Of a DNA stretch of 64,000 nt, positions 57,464-57,884 are shown one piece after another; position 1 is the stretch's first letter; each line of letters starts with the position of its first letter. The position numbers and the translations under genes were made by a program. This DNA is from Escherichia coli (GTDB lineage Bacteria > Pseudomonadota > Gammaproteobacteria > Enterobacterales > Enterobacteriaceae), in NCBI RefSeq assembly GCF_044647545.1, contig NZ_CP172818.1, one strand, 5' to 3'. Under the pieces are notes generated by a model. It was not told the DNA's origin and searched no databases. It worked only from the letters and a program-made list of their open reading frames with translations.

Positions 57464-57884
57464 GCTTTATCGAAGCATAATAAGTCAGACGATAATTTAT
57501 CGATAATACTGGTCGGTTTTGCATAAATCGACCAGAGATTAAGTTATTACTGTTGATGCTCCTGCTAATTCATTATTTATTTTTATAATTTCAATTTCAT
57601 CTATAAAACTAGCTATATAAATAAACATAACCATGCCGTTGTGTTCGCCTTCTGATTAGCAACTCTGGTTTTCTTTCTTGGCTGAACAATCTGGTTATAG
57701 CGTGAGAACTGACCGTTAATTTTCTCCCTCTTACTGGATAACACACCATGAGCTGCTACCTTTAAAACACCTGAATGTCAACAGGTTAACTCGTGCCATA
57801 TCGTTATAATCCCTTTGATATTAGATGCAAATTAAGGTCATATATAGCCTTATCGATAACATGGTTAATTTTAAGGATAAGAAT

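Follow-up and report, generated by a model that had tools for sequence, protein, structure and literature searches.

The systems closest to the yoaB–yoaC intergenic region of Escherichia coli are horizontally acquired, AT-rich islets silenced by H-NS, the stem-loops that stand at mRNA 3′ ends (intrinsic terminators, or protective hairpins left after Rho termination and exonuclease trimming; Adams et al., 2021), intergenic small RNA (sRNA) genes, and the promoters of the YhaJ regulon (yqjF, ybiJ, yhaK and yhhW). Like the H-NS-silenced islets, the locus is lineage-restricted, has a GC content 12–16 points under that of its surroundings and carries an exact nucleation motif; it differs in being very small (a single gene). 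It resembles 3′-end stem-loops in its stable, covarying stem, in an RNA 3′ end mapped 4 nt past that stem and in a Rho call ∼230 nt further downstream, but whereas typical intrinsic terminators have a U-tract, the E. coli yoaB hairpin is without one. With the sRNA genes it shares a long intergenic region containing transcription start and end signals, while differing from them in that no Rfam family matches, no separate unit runs from a promoter to a terminator and the candidate body is not conserved. As at the YhaJ regulon promoters, occupancy is reproducible in two pathotypes, and the authors of the ChIP study named the yoaC site together with them; the site differs in offering no good TCA-N7-TGA box and in a summit that lies ∼230 bp upstream of the yoaC transcription start site (TSS), beside the yoaB hairpin.

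All elements of the spacer are of well-known kinds, and most are present in published genome-wide tables. Taken together, the evidence makes it likely that the spacer combines several working intergenic elements within an Escherichia-only, ∼840-bp AT-rich islet between yoaB and yoaH. Its first part (57464–57540) would be the yoaB 3′ UTR, with transcripts finishing 4 nt past a conserved stem-loop. The second (57541–57749) would be a fast-evolving untranslated buffer, very AT-rich and then richer in C than in G, which published data show to be occupied by YhaJ in vivo and which H-NS probably binds too, to judge from motif and composition. The third (57750–57884) is constrained and would hold the yoaC promoter or promoters, a 116-nt leader and the ribosome-binding site.

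The window, i.e. the whole stretch of E. coli DNA that was analysed, is 64 kb long and has a GC content of 49.9%, against 33.7% for the yoaB–yoaC spacer. The gene order around the spacer is yoaA (−), yoaB (+), yoaC (+), yoaH (−), pabB (+), and the features that frame it are as follows.

57119–57463, plus strand: yoaB
57464–57884, no strand: the yoaB–yoaC spacer, 421 bp
57464–58303: the islet (spacer, yoaC and terminator), ∼840 bp, 38% GC, between the convergent yoaB and yoaH
57885–58184, plus strand: yoaC (DUF1889), cargo gene of the islet, with its ATG at 57885
58213–58249, no strand: intrinsic terminator, bidirectional and common to yoaC (+) and yoaH (−), from sequence and Term-seq
58304–58483, minus strand: yoaH

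A preliminary description of this DNA, made without database searches, had the AT-rich gap, the identities of the genes on either side and the coordinates exactly right, and its remark that this is one of the longest non-coding stretches in the window is also borne out: among annotated intergenic gaps the spacer ranks second in length, after mipA–yeaG (435 bp). The 56-nt run that it quoted, at 57573–57628, is 87.5% A+T. To call the spacer ORF-free is true in practice, as mechanical ORFs of 22–46 aa exist, none of them conserved. We tried minus-strand ORFs of 31, 43 and 46 aa and a plus-strand ORF of 34 aa as genes and rejected them on stops, frameshifts and changes of frame between strains or species: in other E. 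coli strains the distal ORFs are broken by stops or frameshifts, and the ORF of the conserved part switches frame between species. Neither K-12 (spacer 1893712–1894132) nor the source strain has any annotation inside the gap. The spacer is 100% identical to that of strain FDAARGOS_497 and 96.2% identical to that of K-12, and since there are no indels between K-12 and the window across it, K-12 coordinates can be converted directly to window positions. It is carried, as a single copy, by 5411 of 5426 complete E. coli genomes. Most of it has been deleted via IS1 in strain D72, indicating that the region is dispensable for viability.

When one genome of each bacterial species was scanned for YoaB, 80 loci were recovered, 75 of them outside Escherichia and including Citrobacter, Salmonella, Klebsiella and Enterobacter. 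With YoaC as query, none of these 75 loci had yoaC within 3 kb of yoaB, the two genes being adjacent in Escherichia only, and at most of the 75 the stop codon of the convergent yoaH lies roughly 10–30 bp past that of yoaB. Because yoaC is missing near yoaB at these loci, and yoaB and yoaH abut at most of them, the spacer and yoaC together constitute an Escherichia-specific AT-rich islet. In other Escherichia species the islet measures 880–1300 bp; across the genus its GC content is 37–42% and the YoaC protein is 88–98% identical. DUF1889 homologues (68–77% identity) occur in Kluyvera, Salmonella, Klebsiella and other genera at loci unrelated to yoaB–yoaH, with integrase fragments near those of Kluyvera and Salmonella. 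The yoaB/yoaH junction itself holds other cargo in Phytobacter, Kosakonia, Kluyvera and E. fergusonii, which marks it as a recurrent insertion point. At this site, low GC (0.337 versus 0.499) coincides with restriction to Escherichia, as in H-NS-silenced foreign DNA. The terminator shared by yoaC and yoaH has Term-seq 3′ ends at 1894498 (+) and 1894457 (−), i.e. window positions 58250 and 58209 (Adams et al., 2021; PMC7815308). A phage or plasmid origin for yoaC is unsupported: the protein had no match in phages, and its matches in the plasmid collection were solely to chromosome-sized or very large records.

To examine constraint by segment, we used divergence at fourfold degenerate sites of yoaA, yoaB, yoaH and pabB as the neutral yardstick. 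Comparisons are between the window and K-12, the Escherichia genomes L004, L005, L006 and L008, and Escherichia sp. MOD1-EC7003 (L003); the last line gives polymorphism (pi) among eight E. coli genomes.

Window versus K-12: fourfold sites 0.110; 57464–57540, 3/77; 57541–57749, 13/209; 57750–57884, 0/135
Window versus L004, L005, L006 and L008: fourfold sites 0.26–0.35; 57464–57540, 0.22–0.30; 57541–57749, 0.29–0.33 with many gaps; 57750–57884, 0.10–0.13
Window versus L003: fourfold sites 0.18; 57464–57540, unaligned; 57541–57749, 0.30 with 118 gap columns; 57750–57884, 0.205
Pi, eight E. coli genomes: fourfold sites 0.073; 57464–57540, 0.030; 57541–57749, 0.045; 57750–57884, 0.009

Conservation above the neutral background, which the preliminary description had put forward as a check on function, is thus clear in the yoaC-proximal third, where polymorphism within E. 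coli is ∼8 times below that of fourfold sites, and weak in the middle part. A distal block of ∼110 nt, including the quoted AT run, is missing in E. fergusonii and in MOD1-EC7003. In the latter genome the upstream end of the 57750–57884 block also differs.

The segment next to yoaB contains the following features.

57464–57540, plus strand: yoaB 3′ UTR, with the hairpin, an H-NS motif match and a Term-seq 3′ end
57494–57503, minus strand: exact match to the H-NS high-affinity motif tCGATAAATT
57496–57508, minus strand: weak TSS at 57496 (12 reads) with a −10-like TATTAT, the reverse complement of 57503–57508
57509–57535, plus strand: conserved hairpin with an 11-bp stem (one G-T) and a 5-nt loop, extending ctggtcg-N13-cgaccag
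57539, plus strand: RNA 3′ end by Term-seq (K-12 NC_000913.3 1893787), 4 nt past the stem

The inverted repeat reported in the preliminary description is real, although it had been misplaced, the actual position being 20 bp to the left of ∼57529–57555. As RNA, the hairpin has a folding energy of −16.1 kcal/mol (z = −4.25; none of 200 shuffles equalled it). It lies 46 nt past the yoaB stop codon in the window, and a stem-loop is found at +32 to +52 after that codon in all nine Escherichia genomes examined. The arms read CTGGTCG/CGACCAG in E. coli, CTGGCCG/CGGCCAG in L004 and CTGACCG/CGGTCAG in E. fergusonii and MOD1-EC7003; three pairs are altered on both sides, no shuffle attains the covariation score, and paired cells make up 90% of the hairpin alignment versus 19–44% for slid controls, a covariation that is supportive rather than conclusive because the alignment holds eight sequences only. 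The published 3′ end at 1893787 (+) is present in three of three growth conditions (Adams et al., 2021; PMC7815308, supplementary file 1), and we conclude that the stem marks the 3′ end of the yoaB mRNA. Two marks of an intrinsic terminator, a stable GC-containing stem and a mapped 3′ end, are found here, and the third, a U-rich tract, is absent 3′ of the stem in E. coli (AGAGAUUAAG there); together with a terminator scan of the region that returned no site, this makes intrinsic termination at the hairpin doubtful in E. coli. Since the U-tract is absent, the stem would most likely either terminate transcription weakly or block 3′ exonucleases once Rho has acted downstream. In L004 the hairpin is flanked as AAAACA-stem-TGTTTT, and L005 and L006 are similar, with TGTTTAAG after the stem; on sequence grounds, such AAAACA-stem-TGTTT flanks in several other Escherichia species look like a bidirectional terminator.

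As an inverted repeat between genes, beside a lineage-specific insertion, the hairpin (or the spacer) might be taken for one copy of a dispersed repeat family (REP/BIME, ERIC or MITE) or for the end of a mobile element. We find this hardly credible. Both the 422-nt spacer query (57464–57885) and a 56-bp hairpin segment are single-copy, with a median of one and a maximum of two places per genome, the hairpin segment being present in 5418 of the 5426 complete E. coli genomes; the islet shows no flanking direct repeats in the alignment, and the phage and plasmid searches with YoaC, described above, point the same way. Being single-copy, the hairpin is not a REP-type repeat.

On the minus strand, the published start at 57496 (1891768 (−) in NC_000913.2) was assigned to yoaA with a 509-nt UTR (Kim et al., 2012; PMC3415461, supplementary file 2). 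A putative −10 element, the TATTAT listed above, sits 6 nt upstream of it, and a transcript from there would cross yoaB in antisense, heading to yoaA. The published TSS would reflect a weak antisense promoter; it and the yoaC TSS at 57769 come from a single dataset, with 12–21 reads. The −10 at 57503–57508 is not kept in three of six other species.

The preliminary description had also raised the possibility of an unannotated small transcript, and this part of its claim is not supported: there is no Rfam match and no promoter-plus-terminator unit, and the sole non-mRNA start is the weak minus-strand TSS at 57496. An sRNA encoded in the spacer, either a minus-strand RNA ending at the hairpin or a transcript from 57496, would be consistent with that start, with a sigma-70-like site on the minus strand (57600–57572) and with the TGTTTT or TATTTT that follows the hairpin on that strand in several Escherichia species. 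We nevertheless judge it highly improbable. An Rfam scan of 56900–58600 at permissive E-values gave chance matches only (Streptococcus sRNAs, snoRNAs), with no family matched on either strand, and a consensus scan of the spacer gave no promoter-terminator pair, its terminator part being too strict for a stem without a U-tract. Read on the minus strand, the 57496 start comes after the hairpin, which therefore would not end its transcript, and that transcript would traverse yoaB. No minus-strand Term-seq 3′ end is recorded for the spacer or ‘yoaB’ over coordinates that excluded the hairpin's minus-strand side. Nor is a discrete and conserved unit found: besides the loss of the −10 element in half of the other species compared, the stretch between the putative minus-strand promoter and the hairpin, which would form the body of the RNA, evolves at a near-neutral rate.

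Across the antisense start lies a match to the nucleation motif of H-NS, tCGATAAATT (Lang et al., 2007; PMC2094087). TCGWTWAATT has one match in the 64-kb window, at 57494–57503; the motif is exact in K-12, CFT073, L006 and L008, has one mismatch in L004 and L005, and is absent from L003. Given this exact motif together with the AT-rich composition and lineage restriction of the islet, H-NS binding at the spacer is plausible, and with it the suggestion of the preliminary description that nucleoid proteins occupy the region. For the LysR-type regulator YhaJ, occupancy has been observed in vivo, with published ChIP-seq peaks at the spacer in both EHEC and UPEC (PMC6765310). These data, and the segment that they cover, bring in the features of the middle part.

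57525–57543, no strand: YhaJ ChIP-seq summits in UPEC CFT073, two replicates (centres 2045445 and 2045463; PMC6765310 SI Table S4)
57541–57749: variable AT-rich buffer, near-neutral rate with indels, under the published YhaJ peak
57541–57629, no strand: extreme AT-rich block, 20% GC, including the run 57573–57628; missing in E. fergusonii and MOD1-EC7003
57591–57606, minus strand: T-N11-A motif assigned to YhaJ by the ChIP authors, TTATAGATAAAATTGA in CFT073, EHEC and K-12, TTATAGATGAAATTGA here
57630–57770, plus strand: untranslated stretch richer in C than in G (C/G 1.44, GC skew −0.19), a proposed rut or Rho-termination zone

In CFT073 (spacer 2045384–2045804) the peak spans window positions ∼57315–57744, and Table S3 lists the EHEC peak in its fourth row (peak-shape scores 10.44 and 21.14; PMC6765310). 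The T-N11-A motif lies 65–66 bp from the peak centres. Scanning the spacer for the YhaJ box (TCA-N7-TGA) gave one-mismatch or weak position weight matrix (PWM) matches, of which a match at the level of 57591–57606 is expected ∼0.85 times by chance. The published motif assignment at the yoaC locus appears weak. The summit coincides with the hairpin and the antisense promoter, and stands ∼230 bp upstream of the yoaC TSS, away from the yoaC promoter. Sites of LysR-type regulators usually lie at −35 to −80, and ∼230 bp from a TSS would be unusually far for an activator. As to the consequences of YhaJ binding for expression, none of the YhaJ ChIP targets in UPEC changed expression in RNA-seq; yoaC was termed a ‘known regulated gene’ by Connolly et al., the main text of the paper that they cite for this regulation does not mention yoaC, and we found no YhaJ-dependent yoaC expression in the YhaJ literature examined.

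The YhaJ summit (57525–57543), the inverted repeat (57509–57535) and the H-NS motif (57494–57503) all fall at −1 to −47 of the minus-strand TSS. The distal spacer might on this account be a switch, controlled by YhaJ and H-NS, for the antisense promoter rather than a control site for yoaC, a reading that we regard as very unlikely. If it were true, a sensor of quinone and aromatic stress would tune yoaB and yoaA from an acquired islet, with the hairpin doubling as operator, and the transcript would reach the 5′ region of yoaA, a DNA-damage helicase gene.

Returning to the composite reading, in which the middle part is an untranslated buffer, Rho would probably stop yoaB read-through there and so insulate yoaC. 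Composition suits rut-like function, with C/G ratios of 2.0 at 57541–57629 and 1.44 at 57630–57770 and no conserved ORF. Read-through on Rho inhibition has been published for a Rho-termination region at 1894019 (+), window 57771 (p = 2.4e-6 with a Rho score of 3.15; supplementary file 2 of Adams et al., 2021; PMC7815308); that score derives from 800-nt windows, so that firing of the yoaC promoter induced by bicyclomycin could give the same signal. The main alternative for 57541–57749 is that it is functionless, decaying filler brought in with the islet, whose bound proteins and weak promoters are what any AT-rich foreign DNA would show non-specifically. Its near-neutral divergence and many indels, the ∼110 nt missing in E. 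fergusonii and MOD1-EC7003, the broken small ORFs, YhaJ motif matches at chance level only and the IS1 deletion in strain D72 would all be expected of such filler. Against it, E. coli polymorphism in this part (0.045 versus 0.073 at fourfold sites) indicates a mild but non-zero constraint, the YhaJ peak is reproducible between EHEC and UPEC, and both the Rho call and the excess of C over G suit an insulating role. We consider the absence of function rather unlikely, and it overlaps with the best explanation, the two not being mutually exclusive.

The third part of the composite region is the one under evident constraint, and its features all concern the expression of yoaC.

57750–57884, plus strand: strongly conserved block with the yoaC promoter(s) and 5′ UTR, 0/135 differences from K-12
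57754–57769, plus strand: extended −10-like TGcTACCTT (57754–57762), putative promoter element, and yoaC TSS at 57769
57805–57810, plus strand: perfect TATAAT without a −35, kept in eight of the nine Escherichia genomes (L005 has GATAAT)
57861–57884, plus strand: translation-initiation region GTGGTTAATTTTAAGGAyAAGA, with Shine-Dalgarno (SD) sequence AAGGA at 57873–57877

The yoaC TSS is published as 1892041 (+), with 21 reads (Kim et al., 2012; PMC3415461), and defines a leader of 116 nt; the SMRT-Cappable-seq and Cappable-seq tables have no entry for the spacer coordinates. The TATAAT at 57805–57810 may be a second promoter, with a predicted TSS near 57817, a position for which the 189208x range of the table of Kim et al. 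(2012) holds no TSS. The consensus promoter scan found no plus-strand promoter, a scan that is too strict for an activator-dependent one. The initiation region is kept upstream of DUF1889 genes at unrelated loci in Kluyvera, Salmonella and Klebsiella, and two blocks travel with these genes to other genera, the ∼25 nt that immediately precede the ATG and, ∼70 nt upstream, a TTGATA block.

We argue that the conservation of the leader reflects promoter elements and a ribosome-binding site, and not an RNA switch or a leader peptide, because the leader folds like its shuffles, its anti-SD pairing is not kept, its upstream ORF is unstable and its conserved blocks travel with DUF1889 genes. That the leader is instead a structured cis-regulatory RNA (riboswitch, thermometer or SD-sequestering switch), or encodes a leader peptide, seems improbable. 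Such a role would account for conservation far above that of neutral sites, for the leader blocks that accompany DUF1889 genes in other genera, for a predicted pairing of CCUUA (57848–57852) with the SD UAAGG and for a start codon that each of the nine Escherichia genomes has at −90 to −92. However, the folding energy is no better than that of shuffles (z = +0.48 and +0.49), the anti-SD pairing is lost outside Escherichia, the upstream ORF (start at −92) varies between species (34 aa, 26 aa or an in-frame fusion to yoaC), and no Rfam family matches; the cross-genus blocks can also be read as a −35-like TTGATA, a −10-like TAGTAT and the ribosome-binding site.

For this promoter region Gao et al. 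report an activator from ChIP-exo: YeiE, also of the LysR type, occupies a position upstream of RNA polymerase and activates yoaC, a role that it would also have in the proposed scheme. Transcription, which the preliminary description had put forward as a further check, is found in published maps, with the yoaC TSS, the yoaB-strand 3′ end, the Rho call and the antisense TSS all within the spacer, and its view that this is a regulatory region and not empty spacer gains support from the conserved yoaC-proximal third, the published RNA ends and the YhaJ and YeiE ChIP data.

The direct importance of these findings is small, and the gain is a base-level list of parts upstream of yoaC, a gene of uncharacterised function; in a genome-wide screen, its deletion strain was the most sensitive to boric acid. 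Together, yoaC and its control region represent a small foreign islet that Escherichia has wired into two LysR-type regulons, and they offer a textbook-scale case of a tiny acquired gene with a 3′-end hairpin, an insulating buffer and a conserved promoter.

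The 421-bp spacer between yoaB and yoaC (57464-57884) contains two copies of a perfect 10-bp palindrome, TTATCGATAA, at 57497-57506 and 57850-57859, as well as a half copy, TTTATCGA, at 57466. The two full copies occur in E. coli only; other species show substitutions there. One helical turn separates a pair of GATAAT hexamers, located at 57491 and 57502. At the mapped yoaC transcription start site (57769) begins a further inverted repeat, mostly kept among Escherichia species, which is a candidate operator:

57769-57786, dyad ACCTG-N8-CAGGT, covering positions +1 to +18 relative to that start site

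For YhaJ, the LysR-type regulator with a published ChIP-seq peak in the spacer, Connolly et al. (2019; PMC6765310) list yoaC under 'known regulated genes', citing Palevsky et al. (2016; PMC5031710); in the main text of the latter, yoaC is not mentioned.

The spacer has a match in 5411 E. coli genomes, of which 55 retain less than 80% of it. In E. coli D72 (locus L089, 3581-4345), IS1A stands in place of the spacer from about +80 through the yoaC N-terminus, beginning just past the yoaB 3' hairpin (window 57509-57535) and leaving yoaC as a pseudogene. Elsewhere in the window, the annotation of the matching strain gives ydjK (22379-23757, minus strand; an MFS transporter gene) as a pseudogene with a frameshift, and the longest intergenic region is the 435-bp mipA-yeaG gap (30001-30435).

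A 2-nt difference in E. fergusonii (L087, 2501-2890) and Escherichia sp. MOD1-EC7003 (L003, ~3527-3916) brings the ATG at -90 into the reading frame of yoaC, which is why some databases hold a 129-aa YoaC, and a 119-aa version starting at window position 57825 is also present among E. coli records. Downstream, the stem-loop at 58213-58249 between yoaC and yoaH works bidirectionally, and is flanked by published Term-seq 3' ends on both strands (58209 and 58250), that of yoaH on the minus strand being far stronger than the plus-strand end.

Directly downstream of yoaH, and in the same orientation, other Escherichia species (L004 and L005) carry a 150-aa pentapeptide-repeat gene:

L004 4175-4627, minus strand, pentapeptide-repeat gene

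This gene is reduced to shorter remnants in L003 and L006, while all that survives in E. coli is ~20 nt from its 5' end (window 58281-58303), the ATG being destroyed.

The genes inserted at the convergent yoaB/yoaH junction differ between lineages:

L044, L051, L071 and L082 (3346-4500), DUF7716-like gene of 350-363 aa, in Phytobacter, Kosakonia and Superficieibacter
L031, L036, L027 and L063, putative ABC-transporter-like ORFs, in Kluyvera and Raoultella planticola loci
L087 2330-4442, 257-aa gene of unknown kind, in E. fergusonii

The yoaB/yoaH junction appears to be a hot spot where insertions recur.
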